Below, in pieces: positions 1,676 to 44,117 of a DNA stretch of 59,872 nucleotides (the first letter of the stretch is position 1; every line of letters starts with the position of its first letter). The notes under the pieces are model-generated. The model was given only the letters and a program-made list of their open reading frames with translations. It was not told the DNA's origin and did not search any database. Source of the DNA: Gemmatimonadota bacterium (GTDB taxonomy: Bacteria > Gemmatimonadota > Gemmatimonadetes > JACCXV01 > JAHWKZ01); contig DASRVA010000183.1 in NCBI GenBank assembly GCA_035687745.1, positions 1 to 59,872 on the forward strand, in the 5' to 3' direction. Both the position numbers and the translations under genes were made by a program.

Positions 1676-2773
1676 TCAGCCGTCTTCCACCACGACGATT
1701 CCGGTCATGAAGGGGTGGGGCGTGCAGTGGTAGGCGTACCTCCCCAGCCGGTCGAACCGCCGGGAGAAGCCCTCCCCGTTCTCGAGGAGATCCGAGTCGA
1801 AGGTTCCGTCATCGGCCGTCACCGTGTGCGCCACCGGATCGTCGTTGACCCATTGGACCGTTTGCCCGGGACGCACGCGGATCTCGGCCGGGGCGAAGGC
1901 GAAGTCGAGGATCGTGATGACGCTCTCTCCCGCCACGTCCTCCTGCCCGTGAAAGATGCGCGACCACTGTGAGAAGGTGCCCAGCGGCATCGTGAAGGCG
2001 AAACCGTACCTGAGGTTGGTGTCGCCCTCGGCGTCCTCGAATCCCCGGCTCGCTCCCTCCAGCGTCGTCGCGCCGACGTTCGAGACCACGAAACCGAGGG
2101 TGTGCGGCGACCCGGGGATCGCCATGTGGACTCCCCCGCTCCAGGCGCTGGGAAGCGTGTCGGCGGACACGACCCGCGCCACGTCGCCGCCGACCGCGAG
2201 GCGTGGGGTGAGGTGGAGGAGGAGCCCCGCGCCGAGCGCGGCTTCGGCCTCGTTCGCGCCGTACGCGGACGAGAAGGCCCGCGCGACGCCCAGGAGGGAG
2301 ACCGGTCCGGCCCGCAGGCGTCCGGACAGCTCGCCGTTCACGCTCTCGGTCGCCGTGTTGTAGGCGGCCGTCCCGGCCAGGTCGAGCCGCTCACCGAGAG
2401 CGTATCGCGCCCGAACCCACGGCTCCCACTCGTTCGGGGTCCCCGCCCCCAGCTCCGAGTTGGAAGCGTAGGTCGTACCAAGCGCGAAGCCGGCCGGCAG
2501 CCCTACGGCGAGCACGAACGTCGGGTAGTTCTGGATCTTCTTCTCGTCTTCTCCGATCAGCTCGAACCGGTGGAGGAAGGTGAACTCCGAGGTCCGCGGA
2601 CGGGGGACGGTCGTCCCGCCCAGGTTGGGCGAACGGGTGAGGAGGGACTGGGCGTCGGCCGGGGCCGGCGCGAAGGTGAGCCCGGCCAGGACGGCCAGCC
2701 CAGCCAGGACGGCCAGCAGACCGCGGCGGATCCGCAGTCTGGATCCACCCGCCCTCGGGTGAACCCCCGTCAT
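1676..2773 (-). CDS. Exported putative beta-barrel (DUF5777-like) protein with a C-terminal cupredoxin domain
   Basis: Start taken at ATG 2773 (ATGA overlap with the upstream stop). Signal peptide ending ADA-Q, alternating beta-strand pattern, C-terminal type-1 Cu ligands HTVT...YHCTPHPFM. The barrel family is a guess. Confidence 0.7.
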   Translation of the reverse strand: MTGVHPRAGGSRLRIRRGLLAVLAGLAVLAGLTFAPAPADAQSLLTRSPNLGGTTVPRPRTSEFTFLHRFELIGEDEKKIQNYPTFVLAVGLPAGFALGTTYASNSELGAGTPNEWEPWVRARYALGERLDLAGTAAYNTATESVNGELSGRLRAGPVSLLGVARAFSSAYGANEAEAALGAGLLLHLTPRLAVGGDVARVVSADTLPSAWSGGVHMAIPGSPHTLGFVVSNVGATTLEGASRGFEDAEGDTNLRYGFAFTMPLGTFSQWSRIFHGQEDVAGESVITILDFAFAPAEIRVRPGQTVQWVNDDPVAHTVTADDGTFDSDLLENGEGFSRRFDRLGRYAYHCTPHPFMTGIVVVEDG

Positions 2774-3225
2774 TCGACGGAGACCGAGCCCACCATTCCG
2801 GCCGACCGGTGGGGTTCGCAGAAGTAGGGGAACTCCCCGGCCGTCTGAAAGGTGTGCTCGAGGACGACTCCCTGGGAGCTTCTGCCTGCCTCCTGCCACT
2901 CGTCGTGCCCCTCCGGGGTGACGGTGTGGAAGAGCGAGCCGGCCTGATGCACCCAGCGAACCGTGGTGCCGGGGGCGATCGTCAGCTCGGCCGGATCGAA
3001 CCGGAGGGTCGAGTTGATCAGCTGCACCTCGACCACCATGCCACCCGGCGGCGGGGGAGGATTGGGATTCGGGTTGGGTGGGGGATCCGGTCCGGGACCG
3101 GGACCGGGACCGGGTCCGGGGCCCGTCATTTCGGTCCCGCCGCCGCTACCGCTGCACGCGGCGATGGCGAGAGCCACGACCACCAGCGCGCGTCGCAGGT
3201 CGAAACAAGTAACACGAGAGCTCAT
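2770..3225 (-). CDS. Cupredoxin (plastocyanin/azurin-like) lipoprotein with a Pro/Gly tether
   Basis: ATG 3225 after GGAGAGG. Lipobox IAAC, (GP)n-(PN)n linker, FHTVTP...YFCEPHRSAGM ligands. Confidence 0.88.
   Translation of the reverse strand: MSSRVTCFDLRRALVVVALAIAACSGSGGGTEMTGPGPGPGPGPGPDPPPNPNPNPPPPPGGMVVEVQLINSTLRFDPAELTIAPGTTVRWVHQAGSLFHTVTPEGHDEWQEAGRSSQGVVLEHTFQTAGEFPYFCEPHRSAGMVGSVSVE
3087..3123. repeat. Coding hexamer tandem repeat (CCGGGA/T)n encoding the Pro-Gly linker
   Basis: ccggtccgggaccgggaccgggaccgggtccggggcc inside the cupredoxin gene. Confidence 0.8.
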
Positions 3226-3361
3226 GCCGCACGTACCTCTCCGGGTGAGGGGTCGATGGGAGGGGTACACAGGGAGAACGATTGCAGGGGGGCCTGGATT
3301 GCATCTTGAACAGAATTGCCCGGAATGAACTGTATGTGCCCCGCTTCAAGCGGAGCGGCGG

Positions 3362-4186
3362 TCAGTTCCTGGAAACGAGCGAGCGGAACGCGCCTGGCGT
3401 CATCCCCGTGGCGCGCTTGAAGGTGCGGCTGAAGTGGCTCTGGTCGCTGAAGCCGGCCTCGCGCGCGATCGTGGCGAGCGAGAGATCGGGCCGCGCCAGC
3501 AGCCGGCTCGCCAGCTCGATCCGCAACCCGCGGACGAGCTCGCCGGGGGTGCAGCGGTAGTGGCGCTGGAAGGCTCGGGCGAGAGAGCTGGGATGGACCC
3601 CGACTTCGAGGGCAATATCGGCGATCCGGATCGGCTCGGCAAAGCGGTCGTGGAGGAGCTCGTGGGCCCGCCCCACGAACTCGGGGGCGGTTCCGCTCCG
3701 GAGGCGTCGGGCGACGCCCGAGAGGAGGACGAGCAGGAGGCCCTCGACGACGAGCAGGGACAGGTCGTCGGCGGTCCGCAGCTCTTTGAGCAGACGCGCC
3801 GAGATCCAAGCCCAGCGGCCGGGCGGGAAGACCGCCGTGCCGGAGGGCAGCGTCGCATCCGGGTCGAGGCCCAGCCCGTCCGGATCGAACTCGATCGCCA
3901 GGCAACGTGCGCCCACCCCTGAGAAGCGCTCGGAATGCACGAGCCCGGCCGGATGGAAGAGGGTTTCCGCCGACCGGCATTCGCGCCGCTGACCGCTCCA
4001 GTACTCGGTGTAGCCCCCCGCCAGCACGAAGTTCACGATGGGTCGCTCGTGGGAGTGCTCGGGGATACGGAACCCGCCCGGAAAACGCACCTCGCTGACC
4101 GTGAATCGGTCAGAACGTCGGCGGCGAAGGGTCTCGCCGTAGAAGCGACCTGTGGAAAGCCTGGCGGTCATGCTGCGCTCCGTCAC
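3362..4186 (-). CDS. AraC family transcriptional regulator (cupin-like sensor plus HTH)
   Basis: IPEHSHE cupin motif and C-terminal AGFSDQSHFSRTFKRATGMTPGAFR. Alternative start ATG 4171. Confidence 0.93.
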   Translation of the reverse strand: MTERSMTARLSTGRFYGETLRRRRSDRFTVSEVRFPGGFRIPEHSHERPIVNFVLAGGYTEYWSGQRRECRSAETLFHPAGLVHSERFSGVGARCLAIEFDPDGLGLDPDATLPSGTAVFPPGRWAWISARLLKELRTADDLSLLVVEGLLLVLLSGVARRLRSGTAPEFVGRAHELLHDRFAEPIRIADIALEVGVHPSSLARAFQRHYRCTPGELVRGLRIELASRLLARPDLSLATIAREAGFSDQSHFSRTFKRATGMTPGAFRSLVSRN

Positions 4187-4738: not shown

Positions 4739-5116
4739 TTACGATTGGAGCAGAACGATGAGAAGGATGGTGAGGACGAGGAGGATGATGAGCGTCGTGG
4801 AGGAGATGTACCCGTCGATGGCCAGCCGCCGTTCCACCTCCCGGGCCTGGCCGGCCGCCCGTGCCAGGGGTTCACCCTCGAGGAGTTGGACACGGCCGCG
4901 GGCGGCGTCCAGGTCGAGACCGGCCGTGTCCGCCACCCGTCGCACCTCGGCGCGGTCGAGGGCGGCCAGGATAGCCTGGCGCTGGGCGTCCTCCGAGGCA
5001 GCGACGACCGTGGTCGGCTCGTCGACGACGACCGCCTGGGCCTCCACCCGCGACGGGAGGATCAAGAGAGTTCCCAGCAGGAGCAGGGCCGGAGCGAAGC
5101 AAACCGGACGGACCAT
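4739..5116 (-). CDS. PA2779-family-like protein, tandem paralog
   Basis: ILAALDRAEVRRVADTAGLDL...LARAAGQAREVERRL...LIILLVLTILLIVLL parallels the neighbouring gene. Confidence 0.7.
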   Translation of the reverse strand: MVRPVCFAPALLLLGTLLILPSRVEAQAVVVDEPTTVVAASEDAQRQAILAALDRAEVRRVADTAGLDLDAARGRVQLLEGEPLARAAGQAREVERRLAIDGYISSTTLIILLVLTILLIVLLQS

Positions 5117-5123
5117 GGCCGGC

Positions 5124-5153
5124 AGTCTAGACCTGGAGCGGCGGCCGAAGCAA
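5124..5153 (-). promoter_or_regulatory. Sigma70-like promoter TTGCTT-N18-TAGACT (probably leaderless mRNA)
   Basis: The -10 hexamer ends 7 nt before ATG 5116. Confidence 0.4.
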
Positions 5154-5158
5154 GGGCC

Positions 5159-5623
5159 TCAGGAGCCCGCCAGCCGGCGAACGATCTCGTACTCGGCGGG
5201 TTCGACCCGCGTGATCGAGAGCCGGTTCCCGCGCTTGAGGACGGACATTTTCTCGAGACCCCGGGCCACCTTCATCCGCTCGCGGGTGACCGGTTCGGCG
5301 AAGGTCTTCACGTGACGCAGGTCCACGCACCACCAGGTGGGGTTCTGGGGATCCGAGTCGGGATCGTAATAATGATGATCCTTCTCGAATTGCTTGGAAT
5401 CGGGGTGTGCCTCCGAAGCCACCTCTGCGAGCCCGTAGACCCCCAGGGGATCGGCGTTCGAGTGGTAGAACAGGACTCCGTCGCCGACGCGCATCGTGTC
5501 CCGCATGTAGTTTCGCGCCTTGTAGTTGCGAACCCCCCACCATTCCGTCGAGCCGTCCCGCTCCAGATCGTCGATCGAGTACGTGGAGGGTTCCGACTTG
5601 ACGAGCCAGAAGCGATCGGCCAT
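5159..5623 (-). CDS. EVE domain protein (THYN1-like)
   Basis: FWLVKSEPSTYSIDDL...WWGVRNYKARNYMR...GDGVLFYHSN...RGNRLSITRV. Confidence 0.93.
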   Translation of the reverse strand: MADRFWLVKSEPSTYSIDDLERDGSTEWWGVRNYKARNYMRDTMRVGDGVLFYHSNADPLGVYGLAEVASEAHPDSKQFEKDHHYYDPDSDPQNPTWWCVDLRHVKTFAEPVTRERMKVARGLEKMSVLKRGNRLSITRVEPAEYEIVRRLAGS

Positions 5624-5626
5624 GGG

Positions 5627-6184
5627 CTAGATGGCGCCGCCCCGGACCGGCCGGGAGGCCCGCAGCTCGTCGACGGCTTGCTTCAGGTCCGACTGAGCCC
5701 GCCGTAGCTCCAGGAGGGCCACGATACGGCGGCTCAGGGCATGGAGGGCCTTCGACTGCTGGGCGGTGAGAAAGCGCGGCTGGCGATCGATCACGCAGAC
5801 CGTGCCGAGTGCGAAGCCGTTGGACGTGATGAGGGGCGCGCCGGCGTAGGAACGGATGTTCGGGTCCCCGACCACGAGCGGGTTATCCGCGAAGCGCTCA
5901 TCCAGAGCGGTATCGGGGACCAGGAACAGGTCCGTTCCGAGGATCGCGTGCCCACAGAACGAAACCTCGCGGGACGTTTGCGTCAGAGCCGTCCCAGTGC
6001 GGCCTTTCAGCCACTGGTGATCCTCGTCGACCAGCGTGACCAGGGCGATCGGCGTGTCGCAGATCTCCGCGGCCAGCAGGGCGAGATCGTCGAAGTCCGG
6101 GTCCGGGACCGGCTCGATGGGCCCGTAGCTGCGGAGCGCTTCGAGCCGGTCGGCCTCGTTGGATGGAAGAGCGGGTGCCAGCAT
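5627..6184 (-). CDS. Stand-alone GAF domain protein
   Basis: E..RLEALR, FDDL..LAA.IC.TPIALVTLVD, SFCGHAI, RFADNP, YAGAPL, LGTVCVID; ends in a short coiled coil with no output domain. Confidence 0.88.
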   Translation of the reverse strand: MLAPALPSNEADRLEALRSYGPIEPVPDPDFDDLALLAAEICDTPIALVTLVDEDHQWLKGRTGTALTQTSREVSFCGHAILGTDLFLVPDTALDERFADNPLVVGDPNIRSYAGAPLITSNGFALGTVCVIDRQPRFLTAQQSKALHALSRRIVALLELRRAQSDLKQAVDELRASRPVRGGAI

Positions 6185-32944: not shown

Positions 32945-33052
32945 GGAGTGGGGGACACCGGGTGGAGTCGCACTCGGTCGCTCCGGAATGTGTGGTGCAA
33001 CTACAGCGTTCACGAGAGGAAAGGAGAAACTGCCGCGGGAAAGGAGACGGTC

Positions 33053-35737
33053 ATGACGCAATTCTCTCGGTTGCTGCTTCCCCTCCTTGTATCGATTCCG
33101 ATCTTCGCCGTTCTCCCTCGGGCCGCTTCCGCCCAGACGGGTACGGTGTCCGGCACGGTCGTCGACGAGCAGGGCCAGCCGATCCCGCTCGCGACCGTGG
33201 TCGTCGAAGGGACGAACCTGGGCGCCGTGACCGACGAGAACGGTGCGTACGTCATTCGTGAGGTCCCGGCGGGCCCGCAGACGATGGTGGCCCGGGCGTT
33301 CGGCTACCGGATGCAGGCGGAGACCGAAGACGTCTCGGCCGGCGGCGATGAGAGCCAGGGCTTCGTGCTCGCCCAGGACTATCTGGGCATGGAGACGATC
33401 GTCGCGACCGCGCAGCGCGAACCCCGCATCAAGCTCGAGACGAGCACCGCGATCACGACACTCCAGCCGCAGGACATCGAGCGCGCGGCACCCCGAAGCA
33501 CGGCCGACCTGCTCAAGGTGGTCCCCGGCTTCTACGTGGAGAGCTCGGGCGGAGAGGTGGGCGGAAACCTCTTCGCACGCGGTCTCCCGGCCGACGGATC
33601 GTTCCGCTACGTGGCGCTGCTCGAAGACGGGATGCCGGTCTACGATTCGACGGAGCTGTCGTTCGTCAACGCCGATATCTTCGTCCGACTCGACAACAAC
33701 ATCCGCCAGATCGAAGCCGTGCGGGGCGGAAGCGCGGCGCTCTTCGGCAGCAACGCCCCCGGCGGGCTGATCAACTTCCTCAGCAAGACGGGGGGCCCGC
33801 AGACATCGGGGATCCTGACCTTCGAGGGTGGCGAGGCGGGGATGTTCAAAGTCGACGCCAACGTCAACGGGCCGGTCGGGGAAACCGACTGGCGCTACAG
33901 CGTGGGCGGCTTCTACCGCAGCGATGACGGCATCCGGGATCCCGGCTTCACCGCCTCCGAGGGCGGACAGATCAAAGCCAACATCGGACGGGTGTACGGC
34001 AACGGCTATGTGCGCTTCTACGGCAGGGCGCTCTTCGACAGCAACATCTTCTATCTACCGCTGCCGATCCAGAACCCGACCGACCCCGAATTCGTCTCCG
34101 GATTCCCCGACGACGGGACGCTGACCAGCGAGGAGGGGGTCGGCAAAGTGGTTCCGCTCCCCGACGGAGACGAGCTCGTTCTCGAACTGGATGACGGCCA
34201 GCGGCAGGAGGGCGCCTGGATCCAGGCGGATCTGGGGTACGACCTCGGCGGCGGCTGGTCGATCGAGAACAAGTTCCGATACATGGACGTGGATCACTAC
34301 TGGAACGCGATGCTCCCGTTCGAGCTCGTCGACGCCAACGACTGGGCGGCGGGGTTCGTGGAGGATACTCCGGAGGGTGCGGGCTTCCGACTGACGTTCG
34401 CCGACGGCGGACAGTCGTTCGACACGCCCAACGACCTGCTGAGCCTCGGCGGCCAGTGGTTCGTCCAGATTCCGATGTCCGACGTCTCCGACCAGCTCCA
34501 GCTCACCAAGCAGGTCGGCCGTCACGACATCACGGTCGGAACCTATCTCAGCCGCTACGAGGCCGACCCCAACTGGAACTTCAACGACATGGTCACGAAC
34601 GTGGAGAACGCCCCGCGCTTCGTGGATCTCGAGATCCTGAACGAGGCCGGTGAAGTGGTCCGCGAGGTCACCAACGAGGGCTTCCGCCAGTACCTGTCGC
34701 TGTACGTGAACGCCGAGCAGAGCACGACCGTGGCCGCTCTCTTCGCCGGTGACGAGATCGCGCTGGGCGACCGCTTCGACCTGGATGTTGGAGTACGGTA
34801 CGAGCACAACACGTTCGACATCCGGACCGAGGAGACCGGCTCGTTCGACGTCGCGGGCGGAACCGATGCGCACACGGGCCTCAACTTCGGAACCGGCGAG
34901 TTCGACGAGTTCGAGCGCGACTTCGAGGAGCTGGCCTTCTCGGTGGGCGGGGACTATCAGATCAGCGATCAGGTCTCCATCTATGGGCGCGGGACGAACG
35001 GCTTCAAGATGCCGATCATGGACAACGTGCGAAGCGCGGGCGCGAGCGGCGTGCTCGAGCCCGAGGACGTAGCGCAGGTCGAGGGCGGGATCAAGGTCGG
35101 TTCGCCCAAGGTCGGCCTCTCGGCCGTCGCCTACTGGCTCGAGATCCAGGATTTTCCGAGCGGGGACGTCCAGATCGATCCGGAGACCGGCGAGACCGAG
35201 TTCGTCACCCGCTTCGCGGGGGAGGCGCGGACGATCGGGACGGAGATCGAGGTCGTGGCGGCACCGATCCCGGCGCTCCGGCTGAACGGCACAGCGACCT
35301 TTCAGAACCCCGAATACACCGATTTCTTCACCGAGGTGGGCGGGGAGTGCCAGAATCCGGCCGGGACCCTTTGCGACATCTCGGGCAATCGCGTGCGCCG
35401 GATTCCACAGACGATCTTCGAGGTCGGCGCCGCCTTCGACGTCGGGAACCTGACGCTGAACGGCGATGTCAACTTCGTCGGGGAGCGGTTCTCGAACAAC
35501 GAGAACACGATCGTCCTGGAGAGCTACTCGATCCTCGATCTGGGGGCGGCGTATCGCATCCCGGACTTCGGGGTGACCGCCCGAGTGGATCTCAGCAACG
35601 TGACCGACGAGGGCGCCAACGCGCTCACGGAGGGAAATCCCAGAATCGACGAGAGCGTGGGCGCCCAGAGCACGCTCTTTCTCGCCCGGCCCGTTCTCCC
35701 GCGGCGGGTGACGGCGGGGATCAGCTACGAGTTCTGA
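33053..35737 (+). CDS. TonB-dependent receptor, probably for a sugar (trehalose/glucoside)
   Basis: Signal peptide, carboxypeptidase-regulatory-like domain, plug (IVATAQR...IEAVRGGSAALFG), barrel ending ISYEF; followed by trehalase. Confidence 0.93.
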   Translation: MTQFSRLLLPLLVSIPIFAVLPRAASAQTGTVSGTVVDEQGQPIPLATVVVEGTNLGAVTDENGAYVIREVPAGPQTMVARAFGYRMQAETEDVSAGGDESQGFVLAQDYLGMETIVATAQREPRIKLETSTAITTLQPQDIERAAPRSTADLLKVVPGFYVESSGGEVGGNLFARGLPADGSFRYVALLEDGMPVYDSTELSFVNADIFVRLDNNIRQIEAVRGGSAALFGSNAPGGLINFLSKTGGPQTSGILTFEGGEAGMFKVDANVNGPVGETDWRYSVGGFYRSDDGIRDPGFTASEGGQIKANIGRVYGNGYVRFYGRALFDSNIFYLPLPIQNPTDPEFVSGFPDDGTLTSEEGVGKVVPLPDGDELVLELDDGQRQEGAWIQADLGYDLGGGWSIENKFRYMDVDHYWNAMLPFELVDANDWAAGFVEDTPEGAGFRLTFADGGQSFDTPNDLLSLGGQWFVQIPMSDVSDQLQLTKQVGRHDITVGTYLSRYEADPNWNFNDMVTNVENAPRFVDLEILNEAGEVVREVTNEGFRQYLSLYVNAEQSTTVAALFAGDEIALGDRFDLDVGVRYEHNTFDIRTEETGSFDVAGGTDAHTGLNFGTGEFDEFERDFEELAFSVGGDYQISDQVSIYGRGTNGFKMPIMDNVRSAGASGVLEPEDVAQVEGGIKVGSPKVGLSAVAYWLEIQDFPSGDVQIDPETGETEFVTRFAGEARTIGTEIEVVAAPIPALRLNGTATFQNPEYTDFFTEVGGECQNPAGTLCDISGNRVRRIPQTIFEVGAAFDVGNLTLNGDVNFVGERFSNNENTIVLESYSILDLGAAYRIPDFGVTARVDLSNVTDEGANALTEGNPRIDESVGAQSTLFLARPVLPRRVTAGISYEF

Positions 35738-35792: not shown

Positions 35793-35812
35793 CCGTTGTG
35801 GAGCGGGTGGCC

Positions 35813-38710
35813 ATGATCCTCCGCCTCAGGGCGACCGCCTGGGGGCTGGTCGTCGCGGTCGCTCTCGCGGTCGGGTGCCATACCAGCGGGCAGGTCCGAG
35901 ACCCCGGCGTCGTCGGGGAGGACGCGGCCCCCACCCGCTACGAGCCGTCGCGCGATCTCGGGATCCTGTTCCACGACGTTCAGCTGTCAGGCCTCTTCCC
36001 TGACTCCAAGACGTTCGCCGACGCCCGGCCGCTCCTGCCTCCGGCCGAGATCCTCGCCCGCTACGCCGCGCTGCGCGACTCGGCGGGTTTCAGCCTCCGG
36101 ACTTTTGTGGAACGGCATTTCGAGCTCCCCCAACCGGTCGGCGGGGATTTTCGGGCCGACACCTCGCGGACCATGGAGGAGCACATCCGGGCGCTCTGGC
36201 CCGTGCTCACCCGGGCGGCCGACAGCACCGCCGCTCATTCTTCGCTGATCCCGCTGCCCAATCTGTACGTGGTCCCCGGCGGCCGCTTCCGCGAGGTCTA
36301 CTACTGGGACTCGTATTTCACGATGCTCGGCCTCGTCGAGAGCGGCCGGACGGACCTCGTCCGGAGCATGCTCGACAACTTCGCATATCTGGTGCGGACC
36401 ATCGGCCACGTTCCGAACGGCAACCGGACCTACTACCTCAGCCGCAGCCAGCCGCCGTTCTTTGCCGCGATGGTCGGCCTCTTCGCGCAGGCGACCGACA
36501 CCACGCGGGCGCTCCGCTATCTCGACGCGCTGGAGATGGAGCACGAGTTCTGGATGGATGGTGCCGAGGGCCTGGAGCCGGGGGCGGCGTACCGGCGAGT
36601 CGTGAAGCTGAGCGACGGCTCCGTGCTCAACCGGTATTGGGACGACCGTCCTGAGCCCCGACCCGAATCCTACCGGGAGGACTATCTCCTGGGGCAGACA
36701 CTCCCCGAGGAGCGGCGCACCTCCCTGTTCCGGGAGATCCGCGCCACCGCGGAGAGCGGCTGGGACTTCTCGAGCCGCTGGAAGCGCGACCCATCGGACC
36801 TCCGGACCCTGGAAACGACGGGGCTGATTCCGGTGGACCTCAACAGTCTGCTCTATCACGCTGAGCGGACGATCGCCGCATTCCGGGCGTTCCGGGGCGA
36901 TCCGGCAGACGGGGAAGTCGCCGAGAGGTTCGCGCTTTCGGCCGAGCGGCGGCGGCGGGCACTGCTCGCGCGCGCATACGATCCCGACAGCGGCTACTTC
37001 TACGACGTCCGCTGGCGGAGCGGCCAGCGTGTGACCGACCGGCCCACCCTGGCTGCCGCCGCCGTTCTCTACTTCGGGCTCGCCACCCCCGAGCAGGGCC
37101 GCGCGGTCGCCGCCCGGCTGGAGGAGGACTTCCTGAAGCCCGGCGGGTTCGTAACGACGCGGGTGGCTTCGGGACAGCAGTGGGATGCGCCCAACGGCTG
37201 GCCTCCTCTCCAGTGGCTGGCGATCCAGGGCGTCCGCCGCTACGGGCGCGAGGACCTCGCCGCCGCCGCGCGCGAGCGCTGGCTCGAGCTCAACCGCCGC
37301 ACGTATCAGGCGACCGGCAGGATGATGGAGAAGTACGACGTCGTCGATCTCGACCGACCGGCCGGCGGGGGCGAGTACCCGACGCAGGACGGGTTCGGGT
37401 GGACGAACGGCGTGGCGCTGGCTCTCGTGGCCGAGCAGGGAGCCAGGGTCGGACGCGGGCCACGGGGCTCCGAGGGGTTCAACGGGCGCTACAGCCTCTC
37501 ACGGACGCTGCGCCGGGACCCGAACGGGGTCCGTGCCGAGCGGAAGAGCAATCAATGGCTTGCCGTCCACCCCTCGCATGGCTTGACTTCCCCGAAGTTT
37601 TACCGAAAATTAGTAGCAGGCATCTCGAGGGTAAGCATGACCCACCCATCCATCCGCGGCCGCGGTGCGGCCCACAACCCGCCCAACCGTTTCGACCTGA
37701 TCTCGGTCGAGCGGGAGGCGTGGACCCACGCCGAGGACCCGGCGCCCGAGACCAAGTTCTACCGCGACGCCTCCCGTTCCATCATCGCGACGAACGACAG
37801 CCCCGACGTCGGGTTCGACGCGAGCATCAATCCGTACAGAGGTTGCGAGACGGGATGCTCGTATTGCTTCGCGAGGCCCACCCATGAATTCTTCGGTCTC
37901 TCGGCCGGAATCGACTGGGAGACCAAGATCTTCGTGAAGGAGGACGCTCCCGAGCTTCTTCGCGACCAGCTCTCCTCCCCGAAGTGGGAACCCAAGCCGC
38001 TCGCCATGAGCGGGGTGACGGATCCCTACCAGCCGGTCGAGCGGCGGCTCGGGATCACCCGCCGCTGCCTGGAGGTCTTGGCCGAGTTCCAGAATCCGGT
38101 CGTGATCATCACCAAGAATCATATGGTCACGCGGGACATCGACCTGCTCCAGCGCCTGGCCATGCACGACGCCGCGATGGTCAACTTGTCGATTACGACC
38201 TTGAGGCGAAGCCTCCAGCGGGTGATGGAGCCCAGGACCTCTATCCCCGAGAAGCGCATCGAGGCGATCCGCAAGCTCTCCGGCGCGGGGGTACCGGTCG
38301 GGGTCCTGGTCGCTCCGGTCATCCCGGGTCTCACCGACCACGAGATGCCGAAGATCCTGGAGCGGGCGGCCGAGGCGGGAGCGGTGCGCGCGGGGTGGGT
38401 GATGCTTCGCCTCCCCTACGCGGTGAAAGACGTGTTCGAGGACTGGCTTGGGCGTCACTTCCCGGACCGGAAGGCGAAGGTCCTGAACCGGCTCCTGAGC
38501 CTGCGCGGAGGCCGGCTGAATGATCCGCGGTTCGGATACCGGATGCGGGGCGATGGGCCATTCGCCGAGCAGATGCGGCAGGTGTTCGAGGTGTCGTGCC
38601 GAAAGGCCGGGCTGAACCGGGTGTCGGTCGAGCTGTCGACAGAAGCCTTCCGGCGCCCCGTGGGGATAGAGATCCCGAGGTGCGAGGGTCCTCAGCTCAC
38701 GCTTCTCTGA
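35813..38710 (+). CDS. treA: Alpha,alpha-trehalase (GH37) lipoprotein whose frame continues without a stop into a radical SAM domain
   Basis: Lipobox AVGC; PDSKTFAD, VPGGRFREVYYWDSYF, SRSQPP, AESGWDFSSRW, QWDAPNGWPPLQW, EKYDV, QDGFGWTNGV. Trehalase homology ends near 37440. Confidence 0.85.
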   Translation: MILRLRATAWGLVVAVALAVGCHTSGQVRDPGVVGEDAAPTRYEPSRDLGILFHDVQLSGLFPDSKTFADARPLLPPAEILARYAALRDSAGFSLRTFVERHFELPQPVGGDFRADTSRTMEEHIRALWPVLTRAADSTAAHSSLIPLPNLYVVPGGRFREVYYWDSYFTMLGLVESGRTDLVRSMLDNFAYLVRTIGHVPNGNRTYYLSRSQPPFFAAMVGLFAQATDTTRALRYLDALEMEHEFWMDGAEGLEPGAAYRRVVKLSDGSVLNRYWDDRPEPRPESYREDYLLGQTLPEERRTSLFREIRATAESGWDFSSRWKRDPSDLRTLETTGLIPVDLNSLLYHAERTIAAFRAFRGDPADGEVAERFALSAERRRRALLARAYDPDSGYFYDVRWRSGQRVTDRPTLAAAAVLYFGLATPEQGRAVAARLEEDFLKPGGFVTTRVASGQQWDAPNGWPPLQWLAIQGVRRYGREDLAAAARERWLELNRRTYQATGRMMEKYDVVDLDRPAGGGEYPTQDGFGWTNGVALALVAEQGARVGRGPRGSEGFNGRYSLSRTLRRDPNGVRAERKSNQWLAVHPSHGLTSPKFYRKLVAGISRVSMTHPSIRGRGAAHNPPNRFDLISVEREAWTHAEDPAPETKFYRDASRSIIATNDSPDVGFDASINPYRGCETGCSYCFARPTHEFFGLSAGIDWETKIFVKEDAPELLRDQLSSPKWEPKPLAMSGVTDPYQPVERRLGITRRCLEVLAEFQNPVVIITKNHMVTRDIDLLQRLAMHDAAMVNLSITTLRRSLQRVMEPRTSIPEKRIEAIRKLSGAGVPVGVLVAPVIPGLTDHEMPKILERAAEAGAVRAGWVMLRLPYAVKDVFEDWLGRHFPDRKAKVLNRLLSLRGGRLNDPRFGYRMRGDGPFAEQMRQVFEVSCRKAGLNRVSVELSTEAFRRPVGIEIPRCEGPQLTLL
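37583..37616 (+). promoter_or_regulatory. Internal promoter/operator-like element upstream of the radical SAM start
   Basis: TTGACT followed by the AT-rich gttttaccgaaaattagtag, which contains the imperfect palindrome TACCGA-AAA-TTAGTA. Confidence 0.55.
37637..38710 (+). CDS. PA0069/Rv2578c-family radical SAM protein (SplB-like), probably from its own ATG
   Basis: MTHPSIRGRGAAHNPPNRF, SINPYRGCETGCSYCFARPTHEF (CxxxCxxC), SGVTDPYQPVE, ITKN, VAPVIPGLTD. Confidence 0.88.
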   Translation: MTHPSIRGRGAAHNPPNRFDLISVEREAWTHAEDPAPETKFYRDASRSIIATNDSPDVGFDASINPYRGCETGCSYCFARPTHEFFGLSAGIDWETKIFVKEDAPELLRDQLSSPKWEPKPLAMSGVTDPYQPVERRLGITRRCLEVLAEFQNPVVIITKNHMVTRDIDLLQRLAMHDAAMVNLSITTLRRSLQRVMEPRTSIPEKRIEAIRKLSGAGVPVGVLVAPVIPGLTDHEMPKILERAAEAGAVRAGWVMLRLPYAVKDVFEDWLGRHFPDRKAKVLNRLLSLRGGRLNDPRFGYRMRGDGPFAEQMRQVFEVSCRKAGLNRVSVELSTEAFRRPVGIEIPRCEGPQLTLL

Positions 38711-38741: not shown

Positions 38742-41700
38742 TCAGCCGTTCGAAAGTGCCGCCGCCCTCACCACCAAGAGCCGCTCGACCTCGCGGCGCT
38801 CGGCGTCGCTCGCGGGATCCCGGAGCGAACGGGTCGCGCGGCCTTCCTTGACCGCGACCGGGACCCCGTCCTTGTAGATGACGCGGTTGCCGGGCAGCGC
38901 CGCCACCCTTTCACCGGGGATCAGGATCCCGGCCAGGTTGAGGGGATCCCCGGCCGAAACCGCGAGCAGCCGCCCGTCGGGCTCCCTGCGTCTGACGGCG
39001 CGGAGCCGCTCGACCGCCTCCGGGAGCGCAAACTGCTCGCCCGCCATTCCCTGCACGAACCGACCTCCGCGCACCTCGCCCCGCATCTCGAGCCGCCAGA
39101 GCACGCGGAGGAGGTCCCGCCAGGGCGCCAGCGGCGCCTCGCGGGCGAGGATCCGCCGCGCGACCACGCCATAGCGGGCGAGGAGCTGGCGCGCGAAGCG
39201 CTCGACCAGATCCTCGCGGTCGGTGCCGGCCGGTGCCGGCCGCTCCACGCCGGTTCCACGCAGGAGGGACCACCGGCCCGCGACGGCGGCTCCCGTGTAG
39301 CGCGGCTGCCGGCCCGGGCGGGGGACCGGGCGTCGACGCCGGCGATGCTCGGGCAGGAGCAGGGTTCGGAGCGCCTCGACGCCGTCGGCGGTGACGAGGC
39401 CCCACGCCAGGAGCTCGCCCAGCCCGCGCTCGACCTGGGCGGGGAGGAGGTCCGTTCGGCGGACCAGGTCCTGGAGGAACGCCGGGCCCCGCTCGCGCAG
39501 GGACGTCAGGACCAGGCGCGCCTCGTGGCTGAGCCGCTCAAGGTCGAGCTCGGGCCACGGGGCCAGGTCCATCCAGGCGTCCAGCTCCTCGCGATCGAAG
39601 AAGGCGATCGGGGTGTTCCGCACGGGACCCGTTCGGGGCCGCTCCGGATCGGCGGTGGGCGAGGGGGGGAGGAGCCGCCCCCAGACCACGTGGCCGCCCA
39701 GGCAGGCCAGATCGAGCCAGCCGGGGTCGTAGCCGGGCAGACGAGCAGGCAGGAGGTCCCGTTCCCACGACACGGCCGGGGCCTCGAACGCCTGCATCTG
39801 GTCGAGCACGGCAAGAAGGCCGCGGGGGCCGTCCGCCGGGGCCGACGAGCCGACCCCCTGCCAGGCGAAGAGGAAGCGCATGAAGTCGGCCGGTGCGACG
39901 GGCTCGATCTCCGATCTCAGGCGATCGATCGTGGTGCGGTGGATCCGGGCCAGGAGCCGGCGGTGACACCACTCGGGATCTTCGAGCCCCGGCGAGAACC
40001 GTCCGCGCAGGATCGAGCCCTCGGTCTCCAGCCGGAGGAGCGCGGCCTGGATCGCGGGCGCGGAGAGCCCCAGCGAATCCACGAGCACGGCCTCGGTGAC
40101 GGGACCGAGCCCCTCGAGGCGTCCCCGAAGAAGGGCGGCCAGGGCCTCGTCCTGATCCCACTCCCGCGCGCGAAGGCGGGCCGGAGACTCGACGGCGGGC
40201 TCGACCTCGATCGGGCCGTACACGGCCTCGACTTCGGGCAGCCGCTCGGCCGCGACCCAGAACCGGCGATCGGCCCCCGTCCGCACCCGGGCGACCCGGC
40301 CCGCCGCGGCCAGCTCATCCAGGCGGTCTCTCCACGGCGCGGCCTCGACCTCGGTGACGAGACCGAGCCAGCTCAGTGCGTCGTGGACCTCGTCGGCGTC
40401 CTCGGGCTCGGGCCAGGCCTCCCCGCGGACGCGGGCGATCGCGTCGGCGTCCAGCGTGCCGAGCTCGTCGGCCGACCGGAAGTCGAGGCCGCGCCGGGTC
40501 TGGACGGCCAGCGTCCGCCGCTCCTCGGCGGGCGCGTCGTCCAGGAAGGCGTAGGGCCGTGCGTTCAGGACCTCGTGGGCCAGGGGCGACGGCTCGGGCA
40601 CGTCGCGGGCGTAGAGCTCGAGCTCGCCCCCGTGGATCCGCTCGAGCAGGGCCTCGAGCCCGTCGATGTCCATCGCCTCCACGAGGCAGTCCTGGACGGT
40701 CTGGCGCACGATGGGATGATCCGGGATCTCGATGTCGCCCACGATGTGCTCGAGGCAGGCCGCGGCCTGCGGAAACGCCGCCGCGAGGAGGTCCTCGGCT
40801 CGCATCCGGAGAAGCTGGGCGGCGACCTTGCGGCCGTTCTGTCGTCGGAGCACGGCCAGTGCGCGCTCCACGTTCCACCGCCAGCGGGTCTGGAACATCG
40901 GCGCGGCGAGAAGCGCCTGGATCAGGATCTCCCGGGCGGTGGACGGGTTCAGATAGCGGAAAACGTCGTCCAGCGGGAACGAGTGCTGCGGGCCGAGCGA
41001 CAGCACGATCGCGTCCTCGTTGGCGGCCGCCTGGAGCTCGAAGTTGAAGGAGCGGCAGAACCGCTTCCGGAGGGAGAGTCCCCACGCGCGGTTGATCCGC
41101 GCGCCGAAGGGGGCGTGCACGACGAGCTGCATCCCGCCCGCCTCGTCGAAGAACCGCTCGAGGACGAGTCGCCGCTGGGTGGGGATGACGCCGAGCACCC
41201 GGCGGGTCGCGTCCAGGTACTCGGCGACCTGGTTCGCAGCCGGCCGGGGGAGGCCGGGGATCTCGTCCACCAGCCAGTCGACGGCCGAGCCGACCCCGGC
41301 GGCAAGCTTCGTTTCGACGTCGGCGCGCAGCCGGCTCACCTCCTCCGAAAGCTCGGCCGTCCGCGCGGGGGCCTCCCCCAGCCAGAACGGGATCGTCGGG
41401 GGCTCGCCGAGGGCGTCGGTGACCCGCACGCGGCCGGTCTCGATCTTGTGGATCCGCCACGACGCGTTGCCGAGCTGGAACACGTCTCCCGGCATCGACT
41501 CGATCGCGAAGTCCTCGTTGATGGTGCCGACGAACGTGCCCTCGGGGTCGAGGATGACGTCGTAGTCGCTGGTGTCGGGGATGGCACCCCCCGACGTCAC
41601 CGCCGCCAGCATCGAGCCGCGCCTCCCGCGCACGACGCCGTTCACCTCGTCGTAGTGGACGCGGGCCGCGCGCCGGCCGCGAGAGGTCGCGTAGCCGTCG

Positions 41701-43205
41701 GCCAGCATGAGGAGGACGGCATCGAAGTCCTCACGCGGGAGATCGCGATAGGACCAGGCGCCCCGGATGAGGCGGCAGAGCTCGTCGACCTGCCAGTCCC
41801 GCGTTGCCGCCGCGGCCACGATCTGTTGCGCCAGGATGTCGAGCGGGCGCTCGGGGAAGAGGAGGCGGTCGAGACGGTCCCCGCCGGCGGCGCGGAGGAG
41901 CGCCGCGCACTCGACCAGCTCGTCCCTGGTGGTGGCGAAGATCCGCCCTCGGGCGACCATCCCCTTGACGCGCCCGGAGCGACCGACCCGCTGGAGGAAG
42001 GCGGCGATCGTTCGGGGGCTTCCGATCTGACAGACCAGATCGACCGTGCCGACGTCGATGCCGAGCTCGAGCGAGGCCGTCGCCACGATCGCCCTGAGCT
42101 CTCCCGCCTTGAGACGCCGCTCGGCGTCCAGGCGTCGCTCGCGCGAGAGCGAGCCATGATGCGAGGTCACCGCGTCTTCACCCAGGCGGTCGGCCAGGTG
42201 ACGGGTCGCCCGTTCGGCCATCCGGCGCGTGTTGACGAAGATCAGGGTCGTCCGGTTCTCGCGGACCAGGCTGGCCAGACGGTCGTAGATCTCCTCCCAT
42301 GCCTCGTTCGAGAGGAGGGCCTCGAGCGGGCTCTCGGGGATCTCGATCGCGAGCTCCATCTCGCGGGCGTGGCCTTCGTCGATCACCAGGCATTCCGGGG
42401 CGGAGCCGCGGTCGCCAACGCTCAGGCCTGCACCCACCAGGAACGCCGCCACCTCCTCGATCGGCCGTACGGTCGCGGAGAGACCGATCCGGAGAGGTGG
42501 CCGGCCGGCCGCGAACGGAGGGCCGATCTCCCCCGAACCCTCGGGTCCACCGCGGAACGCGTCGTCCGCCGTGCCATGCACGGCGAGGTGATCGAGGCGC
42601 TCCAGGCTGAGCGCCAGGTGCGGGCCCCGCTTGTCGTCGGCGACCGCGTGGATCTCGTCGACGATGACCGTCCGGACCGTCTGGAGCATCCGGCGCCCCC
42701 GGCGGGTAGTCAGGAGGATGAACAAGGATTCGGGTGTGGTGACGAACAGGTGCGGCGGGCGATCCAGGTGAGCGCGGCGCTCCGCGGCCGGCGTGTCCCC
42801 GGTCCGGACGGCGGTCCGGATCTCGACGTCCGGCTGCCCAAGCCGGGCGAGTTCACGCCGGATGCCGGCCAGCGGCTCCTGGAGGTTCTTCTCGATGTCG
42901 TTCCCGAGCGCCTTCAGGGGCGAGATGTAGACGACGCGGGTCTCGTCGGGGAGGATCCCCGGTCCGTCCGCGTCCTCCGACAGCCCGAGCCGCACGAGAT
43001 CGTCGATCGCGGCCAGGAAGGCGGCCAGCGTTTTTCCCGACCCGGTCGGAGCCGCGATCACCACATGTCGCCCGGACCGGATCGCCGGCCAGCCCCGCGA
43101 CTGAGGCGAGGAGGGTCCGCCCGGGAAGCGGTCTTCGAACCAACGGCGGACGGCGGGATGGAAGCCGGCGAGGGAGTCGGCGGCGCGCTCGATCATCTCC
43201 TCCAA
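38742..43205 (-). CDS. lhr: Lhr-family DEAD/DEAH box helicase
   Basis: APTGSGKT, SPLKALGNDI, VDEIH, SAT, TASLELGID, QRVGRSG, winged-helix and AlkZ-like C-terminal region. Start may be ATG 43196. Confidence 0.93.
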   Translation of the reverse strand: MEEMIERAADSLAGFHPAVRRWFEDRFPGGPSSPQSRGWPAIRSGRHVVIAAPTGSGKTLAAFLAAIDDLVRLGLSEDADGPGILPDETRVVYISPLKALGNDIEKNLQEPLAGIRRELARLGQPDVEIRTAVRTGDTPAAERRAHLDRPPHLFVTTPESLFILLTTRRGRRMLQTVRTVIVDEIHAVADDKRGPHLALSLERLDHLAVHGTADDAFRGGPEGSGEIGPPFAAGRPPLRIGLSATVRPIEEVAAFLVGAGLSVGDRGSAPECLVIDEGHAREMELAIEIPESPLEALLSNEAWEEIYDRLASLVRENRTTLIFVNTRRMAERATRHLADRLGEDAVTSHHGSLSRERRLDAERRLKAGELRAIVATASLELGIDVGTVDLVCQIGSPRTIAAFLQRVGRSGRVKGMVARGRIFATTRDELVECAALLRAAGGDRLDRLLFPERPLDILAQQIVAAAATRDWQVDELCRLIRGAWSYRDLPREDFDAVLLMLADGYATSRGRRAARVHYDEVNGVVRGRRGSMLAAVTSGGAIPDTSDYDVILDPEGTFVGTINEDFAIESMPGDVFQLGNASWRIHKIETGRVRVTDALGEPPTIPFWLGEAPARTAELSEEVSRLRADVETKLAAGVGSAVDWLVDEIPGLPRPAANQVAEYLDATRRVLGVIPTQRRLVLERFFDEAGGMQLVVHAPFGARINRAWGLSLRKRFCRSFNFELQAAANEDAIVLSLGPQHSFPLDDVFRYLNPSTAREILIQALLAAPMFQTRWRWNVERALAVLRRQNGRKVAAQLLRMRAEDLLAAAFPQAAACLEHIVGDIEIPDHPIVRQTVQDCLVEAMDIDGLEALLERIHGGELELYARDVPEPSPLAHEVLNARPYAFLDDAPAEERRTLAVQTRRGLDFRSADELGTLDADAIARVRGEAWPEPEDADEVHDALSWLGLVTEVEAAPWRDRLDELAAAGRVARVRTGADRRFWVAAERLPEVEAVYGPIEVEPAVESPARLRAREWDQDEALAALLRGRLEGLGPVTEAVLVDSLGLSAPAIQAALLRLETEGSILRGRFSPGLEDPEWCHRRLLARIHRTTIDRLRSEIEPVAPADFMRFLFAWQGVGSSAPADGPRGLLAVLDQMQAFEAPAVSWERDLLPARLPGYDPGWLDLACLGGHVVWGRLLPPSPTADPERPRTGPVRNTPIAFFDREELDAWMDLAPWPELDLERLSHEARLVLTSLRERGPAFLQDLVRRTDLLPAQVERGLGELLAWGLVTADGVEALRTLLLPEHRRRRRPVPRPGRQPRYTGAAVAGRWSLLRGTGVERPAPAGTDREDLVERFARQLLARYGVVARRILAREAPLAPWRDLLRVLWRLEMRGEVRGGRFVQGMAGEQFALPEAVERLRAVRRREPDGRLLAVSAGDPLNLAGILIPGERVAALPGNRVIYKDGVPVAVKEGRATRSLRDPASDAERREVERLLVVRAAALSNG

Positions 43206-43367
43206 TCTACCCGCCGGTACCGACCACGGCCCGGAGCGGAGAGCCCCGATCGAACCTTCCGACCGGATTCACGCTTTCTCTCCATACGGGGCGCCCTGCG
43301 CGCCCGTCGGGGCTGGATCCGGAAGAATGGTCCGGCTCTTGCGGAGAATGCGCTTACCCCCGGTAGG

Positions 43368-44117
43368 ATGACGATGATGAACGGGATCAGACCCGCGGGG
43401 GCGGTCCTCGCCCTCCTCAGCGTTTCGACTTTGCCCTGGGCCCTCGGGTGCTCAAGGATGCAGGTCGGTACGACCTTCGGCCCCGCTCCGGGGAACCCGG
43501 CCACCGAGGTGCGCTACACCAACGCCGAGATCGACTACTTCCTGGAGGTGGCGCTGGGCGTCGAGTTCGCCCACGGCGCGCGGCCGAGGATCATCAAGCG
43601 CTGGCCGACCGCGGAGCTGCCGGCGATCCGGCTGGAGATCATGGGATCGCCGACGTCGCAGGACCTCGCGGTGATCCGCTCCGTGGTCGACGAGCTCAAC
43701 GCGATCGCGGGGCTGCCCTTGATCGCCATCGACACCGAGCGCCCCAACGTGCCCGTCCGGTTCGTCCCGCGGAACAGCATGCGGAGCTACTCATCGCTCG
43801 TCCCGCGCTGGGGCGCGGGCGGGTTCGTGTCGACCGAGCTCAACGACGACTTCTCGATCGAGCGCGGTCAGGTCCTGATCGCCTCGGACATCCCCTTCCG
43901 GGCCCGGAAGCCCATCATCCGCGAGGAGATCACCCAGCTCCTGGGCCTGCTGAACGACTCGAGCTGGTATCCGGAGAGCATCTTCAACGACGCCAACTTC
44001 TCGACCGAGTTCGCGCCCATCGACCGGGCGCTGATCGAGATGCTCTACCGGCCGGAGATGCGGGCGGGGCTCGACGAAGGTGACACCCGGAAGGTGCTCC
44101 GGAAGGCCCTCCGCTAG
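43368..44117 (+). CDS. DUF2927-like lipoprotein
   Basis: Lipobox ALGC; IIREEITQLLGLLNDS...SIFND...IDRALIEMLY. Confidence 0.75.
   Translation: MTMMNGIRPAGAVLALLSVSTLPWALGCSRMQVGTTFGPAPGNPATEVRYTNAEIDYFLEVALGVEFAHGARPRIIKRWPTAELPAIRLEIMGSPTSQDLAVIRSVVDELNAIAGLPLIAIDTERPNVPVRFVPRNSMRSYSSLVPRWGAGGFVSTELNDDFSIERGQVLIASDIPFRARKPIIREEITQLLGLLNDSSWYPESIFNDANFSTEFAPIDRALIEMLYRPEMRAGLDEGDTRKVLRKALR

Follow-up and report, generated by a model that had tools for sequence, protein, structure and literature searches.

Can a single open reading frame (ORF) that carries both a trehalase and a complete radical SAM protein be taken as the gene of one bifunctional enzyme? The question is raised by a locus in the 59,872-nucleotide contig DASRVA010000183.1 (GenBank assembly GCA_035687745.1), the whole of which is called the window here. 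The contig belongs to a Gemmatimonadota metagenome-assembled genome (MAG) of 2.7 Mb in 211 contigs, and one plus-strand frame in it stays open from 35798 to 38710. Our comparisons with relatives indicate that the locus probably consists of two separate genes lying in one frame by stop-less read-through, and not of a gene for a bifunctional enzyme. The preliminary description of this DNA had preferred a missing stop, with the radical SAM protein still made from its own promoter, and had held a true chimera to be least likely. That preference is supported by the conserved signals of the radical SAM gene, by an unconserved linker and by the stops present in close relatives.

The long frame and its two domains

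The ORF list gives 970 codons from a GTG. From ATG 35813, a start that agrees with the annotated starts of relatives (MILRL...), the frame encodes 965 residues, and Pfam places Trehalase at residues 66-545 and Radical_SAM at residues 677-856. Between the domains lie 68 non-domain codons (37433-37636, 204 nt). The ORF list and the Pfam and NCBIfam profiles thus bear out the original account of a 965-residue ORF made of a GH37 trehalase, a linker and a complete PA0069-type radical SAM protein. The parts of the locus are as follows.

35813..37432, plus strand: GH37 trehalase proper, by Pfam and NCBIfam, with GWTNG at 37397-37411
37433..37582, plus strand: C-terminal tail of the trehalase, 50 codons, unconstrained, its sequence and length varying among lineages
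37514..37570, plus strand: 57-nt segment specific to this genome, from the alignment with relatives
37583..37610, plus strand: predicted promoter of the radical SAM gene, with -35 TTGACT at 37583-37588, a 16-nt spacer and -10 GAAAAT at 37605-37610
37592..37608, plus strand: direct repeat CCGAA-N6-CCGAAA (CCGAAGTTTTACCGAAA), situated in the spacer of the promoter and extending into the -10
37627..37632, plus strand: Shine-Dalgarno (SD)-like GAGGGT, 4 nt 5' of ATG 37637
37637..38710, plus strand: complete PA0069-family radical SAM gene, free of an intein, of 357 codons from ATG 37637

The spacer from GWTNG to the radical SAM start measures 240 nt. Since this is a multiple of three and contains no stop, the frame crosses the promoter, the SOS-type operator, the SD and the ATG of the radical SAM gene and ends at the stop of that gene.

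The trehalase part belongs to the GH37 family, its match to PF01204 scoring 454 bits (cut-off 21) over profile positions 2-509 of 512. It scores 584.9 bits against the NCBIfam TreF subfamily profile NF009773, above the cut-off of 512, and 584 bits against the TreA equivalog NF009775, below the cut-off of 941. By inspection its N-terminus, MILRLRATAWGLVVAVALAVGC, resembles a lipoprotein signal, and a lipobox, LAVGC at 35864-35878, was judged in the same way against the PROSITE-type pattern. Signal and lipobox are kept in all relatives of the genus; the trehalase signal has no twin-arginine motif. E. coli TreA, a periplasmic enzyme, likewise has the GH37 domain and a tail after GWTNG that varies, and its export signal at the N-terminus has a putative counterpart here. 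The protein described here differs from TreA in that this signal looks like that of a lipoprotein, in its score below the TreA equivalog cut-off and in lacking its own stop codon. Gemmatimonadota-like metagenome contigs contain further long GH37 trehalase ORFs (P0042, 1334 residues; P0083, 1362; P0201, 1383; P0176, 979). One of the four has alpha-amylase domains (PF00128), and all of them may be further cases of read-through or fusion.

The radical SAM part matches rSAM_PA0069 (NF033668) with 474.3 bits against a cut-off of 360, over residues 620-955 and profile positions 1-339 of 348. The cluster-binding CxxxCxxC is present as CETGCSYC (residues 683-690, nt 37844-37867). Stand-alone orthologues of 359 residues are found in the related contigs L027, L193 and L195. 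We know of no defined biochemical activity for the PA0069 family.

In many close relatives the radical SAM orthologue is about 700 residues long and contains an intein (Pfam LAGLIDADG_3 / Intein_splicing). The intein sits at CxxxCxxC, between positions equivalent to residues ~687 and 695 of the ORF studied here. It was seen in L022 (genome G003) at ~2740-3760, in L023 (genome G002) at ~4810-5830 and in proteins P0004-P0036, while the radical SAM copies of this window, genome G005, L025, L027, L193 and L195 lack it.

Expression signals and a candidate SOS operator in the linker

The first description of the linker had pointed to a TTGACT and a tract with 14 of 20 A/T, and had placed the start of the radical SAM protein at ATG 37637. 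All three are confirmed, the linker now being measured at 68 codons. The A/T-rich stretch, GAAGTTTTACCGAAAATTAG, lies at 37594-37613. Along the sequence GC content falls from ~0.72 to 0.48-0.52 at 37550-37640, and in the promoter part, which covers the distal 54 nt of the linker, GC at the three codon positions is 0.33, 0.50 and 0.56, a pattern that is not coding-like. A promoter search over 37300-37800 returned one site, with 0.0 expected in shuffles. As judged from these features, TTGACT and the A/T-rich tract are the predicted promoter of the radical SAM gene itself.

The block TTGAC / CCCGAA-N-ACCGAAA / SD / start is kept in every relative of the genus, fused or unfused. In the relatives the SD equivalent is GGGAGG, AGAGG or AGGGGA, and in G005, where the start is a TTG, it is GGGAGG. 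A downstream partner that had lost its own expression signals would point to a fusion; the radical SAM gene has retained its promoter, operator, SD and start. In G003 (L022 ~2250-2360) we also noted a degenerate tandem duplicate of the radical SAM promoter, SD and first ~20 codons (MTHSSVRDRGAAPRPHDSSWT, then a stop), which lies directly 3' of the trehalase stop and 5' of the intact radical SAM copy.

The direct repeat that overlaps the -10 is probably a LexA/SOS operator. CCGAA-N6-CCGAA has 11 exact matches in this genome, 7 of them with an A/T-rich spacer (the radical SAM site and the six listed here), and among the genes that it precedes are several that belong to the SOS response:

C32:4226, repeat upstream of lexA, the gene being recognized by its LexA DNA-binding domain
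C94:209, repeat upstream of recA, recognized by TIGR02012 at 556 bits
C176:11528, repeat upstream of dinB
C41:908, repeat upstream of a gene for a DnaE-type polymerase
C86:14738 (a 311-aa protein) and C172:6195 (contig end), A/T-spacer repeat sites without an assigned gene

It is this occurrence before lexA, recA, dinB and the DnaE-type polymerase gene that makes an SOS function probable, and the lexA, recA and radical SAM promoters of one genome have the motif in common, as members of an SOS regulon should. In relatives the repeat was found upstream of recA in 19 of 30 cases, and it lies 3' of the recA -10 in 16 of 16 loci of the same family. It also stands upstream of radical SAM orthologues across Gemmatimonadota, including genera with no trehalase nearby. 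CCGAA-N6-CCGAA(A) is therefore the probable LexA box of Gemmatimonadota, LexA binding being suggested by the logic of the regulon. Our literature search found no paper describing a CCGAA-N6-CCGAA box for this phylum.

Radical SAM orthologues of other phyla carry the LexA box CTGT-N8-ACAG in the equivalent place. In the non-Gemmatimonadota contigs L058, L061, L063, L064 and L151, perfect or near-perfect copies (for example CTGTATATATATACAG) were seen 20-30 nt 5' of the PA0069-family gene. These boxes suggest that SOS control of the PA0069 family spans phyla with different operators. PA0069 itself is among 15 SOS genes of P. aeruginosa (Cirz et al. 2006, as cited in bioRxiv 10.1101/2022.03.14.484287). 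The P. aeruginosa gene (COG1533 'DNA repair photolyase'/SplB-like; NF033668) and the one studied here thus share their family and an SOS-type operator, and differ in that the operator here is the direct repeat CCGAA-N6-CCGAAA and not CTGT-N8-ACAG. The LexA box of alphaproteobacteria is a direct repeat too, GTTC-N7-GTTC. It has the same 11-bp period as our repeat, which reads TTCGG-N6-TTCGG on the other strand and stands at SOS promoters including those of lexA and recA. The core differs (TTCGG/CCGAA), as does the phylum, and the site described here is a putative LexA site.

Stops, spacers and fused frames in the genus

The order trehalase followed by radical SAM gene is specific to this genus. 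Our comparison set held 10 lineages with both genes directly adjacent and two lineage types in which an insertion separates the genes. The frame is fused in 3 of the 10 adjacent-gene lineages, or 3 of ~16 lineages of the genus: in this window, in G005 (MAG DATEDS01, DATEDS010000317) and in L025 with L031 (a JGI population). The contigs L025 and L031, with 99.95% identity, were assembled from two separate metagenomes, and the frame is open in each. The families are normally separate, as had been stated at the outset: among 5.8 billion protein clusters the same architecture was found in only one other, P0001, of the L025 lineage.

In the unfused lineages the first in-frame stop after GWTNG falls at codon 33, 43, 49, 52, 73, 80 or 88, and the trehalases of outgroups stop at about codons 20-28. 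The trehalase stop of L193 is a TGA inside the -35 TTGAC. In L192 the frame runs through promoter and operator, and its stop lies 4 codons short of the radical SAM ATG; the tails of L192 and L193 differ by a 1-nt indel. L025 and L027 share 92% identity, and a TGG of the former corresponds to TAA in the latter, which also has a 1-nt deletion further on. These positions show a trehalase that has no fixed stop in this genus, its predicted frame ending at the first chance stop; full fusion is, on the alignments compared, the extreme end of a continuum of stop positions. An earlier proposal that the CAG of an EQ pair could derive from TAG does not hold, as no relative or outgroup has a stop there and members of the genus run at least 33 codons past GWTNG.

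The closest relative for the tail and the radical SAM gene is L028, at 94-95% identity. In place of 37514-37570 it has a 1.3-kb Fic cassette, and its trehalase stop lies inside the cassette. This stop-supplying cassette is absent from the window and the spacer is in frame and free of stops, hence the read-through. The short spacer directly 5' of the radical SAM promoter (37514-37581 in the window) is, by this alignment, an insertion hot spot. The 1.3-kb cassette, with a minus-strand Fic/Fic_N gene, occurs in L026 and L028-L030 (L028 4845-6162), and G002 (L023 2208-4516) has a different 2.3-kb insert at the same site, of lower GC (0.55-0.65), which likewise supplies the trehalase stop, with a 425-aa ORF that is AAA-ATPase/DUF4143-like by eye and a 126-aa ORF.

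An error of assembly or sequencing would also produce such a frame, if a base had been missed or a junction collapsed within 37514-37636, so as to hide a stop or a change of frame between what are really two ORFs. The MAG is in 211 contigs and represents one assembly, and the frame depends on the 57-nt segment that the closest relative lacks and on small indels near the SD. Yet the linker can be aligned over its full length with the spacers of L025 and L027, where the site is empty, the critical positions have no long homopolymers, and fused ORFs of the same kind are present in independent assemblies, one of them assembled twice. As chance open frames are common in the spacer and the fused state recurs in independent assemblies, an error is not needed to explain the frame, and we regard it as very improbable.

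How often would a frame of this kind be open by chance? Mononucleotide shuffles of the 204-nt linker leave it open in 14% of trials. Among the real spacers, 9 of the 30 combinations of lineage and frame have no stop anywhere in the spacer, or 6 of 27 when the fused ones are removed, and the spacer length is a multiple of three in 5 of the 10 lineages. The chance of fusion per lineage is then 1/3 x 0.22-0.30 = 0.07-0.10, or ~5-10% if the shuffle null is included. Leaving out this window, which was picked as fused, 2 of 9 lineages are fused, and the probability of two or more is ~0.16 at 8% (our arithmetic); the enrichment of fused states is not significant after allowing for ascertainment. Chance would thus suffice to explain the fused state.

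Measures of constraint point the same way. The three fused linkers have unrelated middle sections, and dN/dS is ~0.8 in the shared tail (small counts), with values of 0.18-0.19 for the trehalase domain and 0.12 for the radical SAM domain. On the trehalase tree the fused state requires 3 changes, and its clustering is no greater than with shuffled labels; each fused lineage has an unfused close relative, and the fused lineages are scattered. In a genuine multidomain fusion protein the architecture would be conserved and the linker constrained, and the preliminary description had named a conserved fusion with selection on the linker as a finding that would overturn its preference. The first half of that expectation has superficial support, the fused state recurring in three lineages; the scatter of these lineages and the unconstrained linker speak against the rest.

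Between this genome and L028, dS over 35813-38707 is 0.40 in the trehalase, 0.10 in the radical SAM gene and 0.03 in the tail. We considered the low value of the tail as a sign of function at the nucleotide level and rejected it, a recombination mosaic (trehalase 0.40, tail 0.03) fitting better. In a further protein, P0038, a body like that of P0002 is followed by a tail resembling that of G003. The dS mosaic and this hybrid together suggest exchange breakpoints near the 3' end of the trehalase gene.

Several points weigh against two genes that share a frame by accident. All three fused lineages are in frame although their spacers from GWTNG to the radical SAM start measure 240, 156 and 246 nt. 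The 3 fused lineages of 10 somewhat exceed the 5-10% of the stricter nulls (P ~0.01-0.07 over all 10, by our arithmetic), and a slight preference for the fused state in this sample is conceivable. The proximal tail (37433..37582) retains a coding-like composition, with GC1/2/3 of 0.72/0.60/0.82. The open frame of this particular contig comes from one assembly; a look-up of the exact 965-aa product found no record, and no second assembly with exactly this sequence. Finally, that the promoter is used, that LexA binds, that translation initiates internally and what becomes of the long polypeptide are all inferred.

The first of these points speaks for a rival reading, a selected fusion. The trehalase-radical SAM polypeptide would be made and useful, for example as a LexA-independent basal supply of the radical SAM protein tied to trehalose or desiccation physiology, or it would be processed into two active proteins. 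The in-frame spacers are open in 3 of 5 cases and the out-of-frame ones in 0 of 5 (one-sided Fisher P ~0.08, our calculation), the 1-nt indel of L027 falls 3' of its stop, and the frequency of fusion lies at the high end of what chance is estimated to give. Set against this, the linker has neither conserved sequence nor conserved length, and the fused lineages are scattered, each beside an unfused relative. Only a single other fused cluster was found among 5.8 billion, and the radical SAM gene retains full independent expression signals. The apparent Sec/lipoprotein signal in all copies, with no twin-arginine motif, would moreover carry a cofactor-dependent cytoplasmic enzyme to the periplasm. 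We consider a selected fusion quite unlikely. A narrower form of the idea seems to us very unlikely: that the in-frame state is favoured in the genus, and that the polypeptide is in fact made from the sugar-uptake operon and, either prior to export or without being exported, provides a stock of the repair enzyme that does not depend on LexA and is tied to trehalose or desiccation physiology. If it were true, the genus would present the birth of a gene fusion in progress, with three independent origins.

Expression of the locus and its meaning

The flanking genes bear on how the two genes sharing this frame would be expressed.

32948..35737, plus strand: TonB-dependent receptor gene (ORF list), directly upstream of the trehalase
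38742..43205, minus strand: Lhr-type helicase gene, convergent with the radical SAM gene, the synteny being kept in relatives

The upstream neighbour in the contigs of relatives has the Pfam domains CarboxypepD_reg/Plug/TonB_dep_Rec, and the receptor is probably the sugar-uptake partner and operon mate of the trehalase. The Lhr equivalent in L025 and L195 has DEAD/Helicase_C/WHD_Lhr; no SOS box was seen by eye before the convergent gene, in 43150-43420.

We propose that the promoter of the radical SAM gene is repressed by LexA. After DNA damage, transcription would start near 37617 and translation at ATG 37637, to give a free cytoplasmic radical SAM protein of 357 residues. Transcripts that run on from the TonB-receptor/trehalase operon would give a ~105-kDa trehalase-radical SAM polypeptide, that is, a lipoprotein trehalase with a 420-aa extension, and also some free radical SAM protein by internal initiation. 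The fusion polypeptide would be exported by Sec and lipidated. Sec export and the cofactor needs of radical SAM enzymes are established biology, and with a Sec/lipoprotein signal that has no twin arginine the radical SAM part would reach the periplasm unfolded and without Fe-S cluster, SAM or reductant, and would be inert there. The fused state appears to be tolerated, because it is not rarer than expected, and is probably of no use.

The long frame may also be translated to its end almost never. Operon transcripts would then stop in the tail or at the LexA-occupied operator, by a roadblock or by Rho-dependent termination, and the trehalase (possibly from non-stop mRNA) and the radical SAM protein would be made separately. 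A probable LexA site does lie inside the ORF, in the path of read-through transcription, and the radical SAM gene has its own predicted promoter. Against an early end of the transcript, no intrinsic terminator is predicted in 37300-37800, and a search for known RNA elements in 37200-37900 returned only a chance-level sR035 (20 bits against a gathering score of 233). Nor is the hairpin seen in the tail of two genomes conserved: GGAGCC...GGCTCC here and GGATCC...GGATCC in L025 resembled covariation, and the candidate was rejected since it fails in L027, G002, G003 and G005. We think such early termination unlikely.

Two separate genes in one frame, joined by a stop-less read-through ORF, are a known kind of event, here documented across a genus. 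As in other stop-loss read-through ORFs, the first step of the 'Rosetta-stone' route, adjacent genes of the same strand are joined in frame without an intervening stop, the two are unfused in close relatives, and indels and point changes (TAA versus TGG) turn one state into the other. The present case differs in that the joined ORF still contains the complete promoter, operator, SD and start of the downstream gene, in that the upstream partner is a predicted exported lipoprotein, and in that the linker has no sign of fixation. Two proteins are made from one frame by internal initiation in IF2 alpha/beta, ClpB 93/79 and long and short CheA. There, as would be the case here, an internal SD and start give a short product that is the C-terminal part of the long one. 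In those systems each of the two products has a function and the arrangement has been conserved, whereas at this locus the long product is probably no more than a by-product, and most of the short one would come from its own promoter.

In GC-rich genomes, then, a gene may lose its fixed stop and its frame may run through the promoter of its neighbour, so that in-frame 'fusions' appear by chance again and again. It would be a mistake to annotate such ORFs as bifunctional enzymes, and the internal start will escape gene callers. With stops at many positions and three lineages fully fused, the genus displays all stages of the process and offers a natural series of the birth and tolerance of fusions. 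The probable SOS operator in the linker is a more useful by-product of this analysis than the read-through itself: it would place a PA0069-type radical SAM gene in the SOS regulon of a second phylum, under a different operator, and it supports a role of the family in the response to DNA damage.

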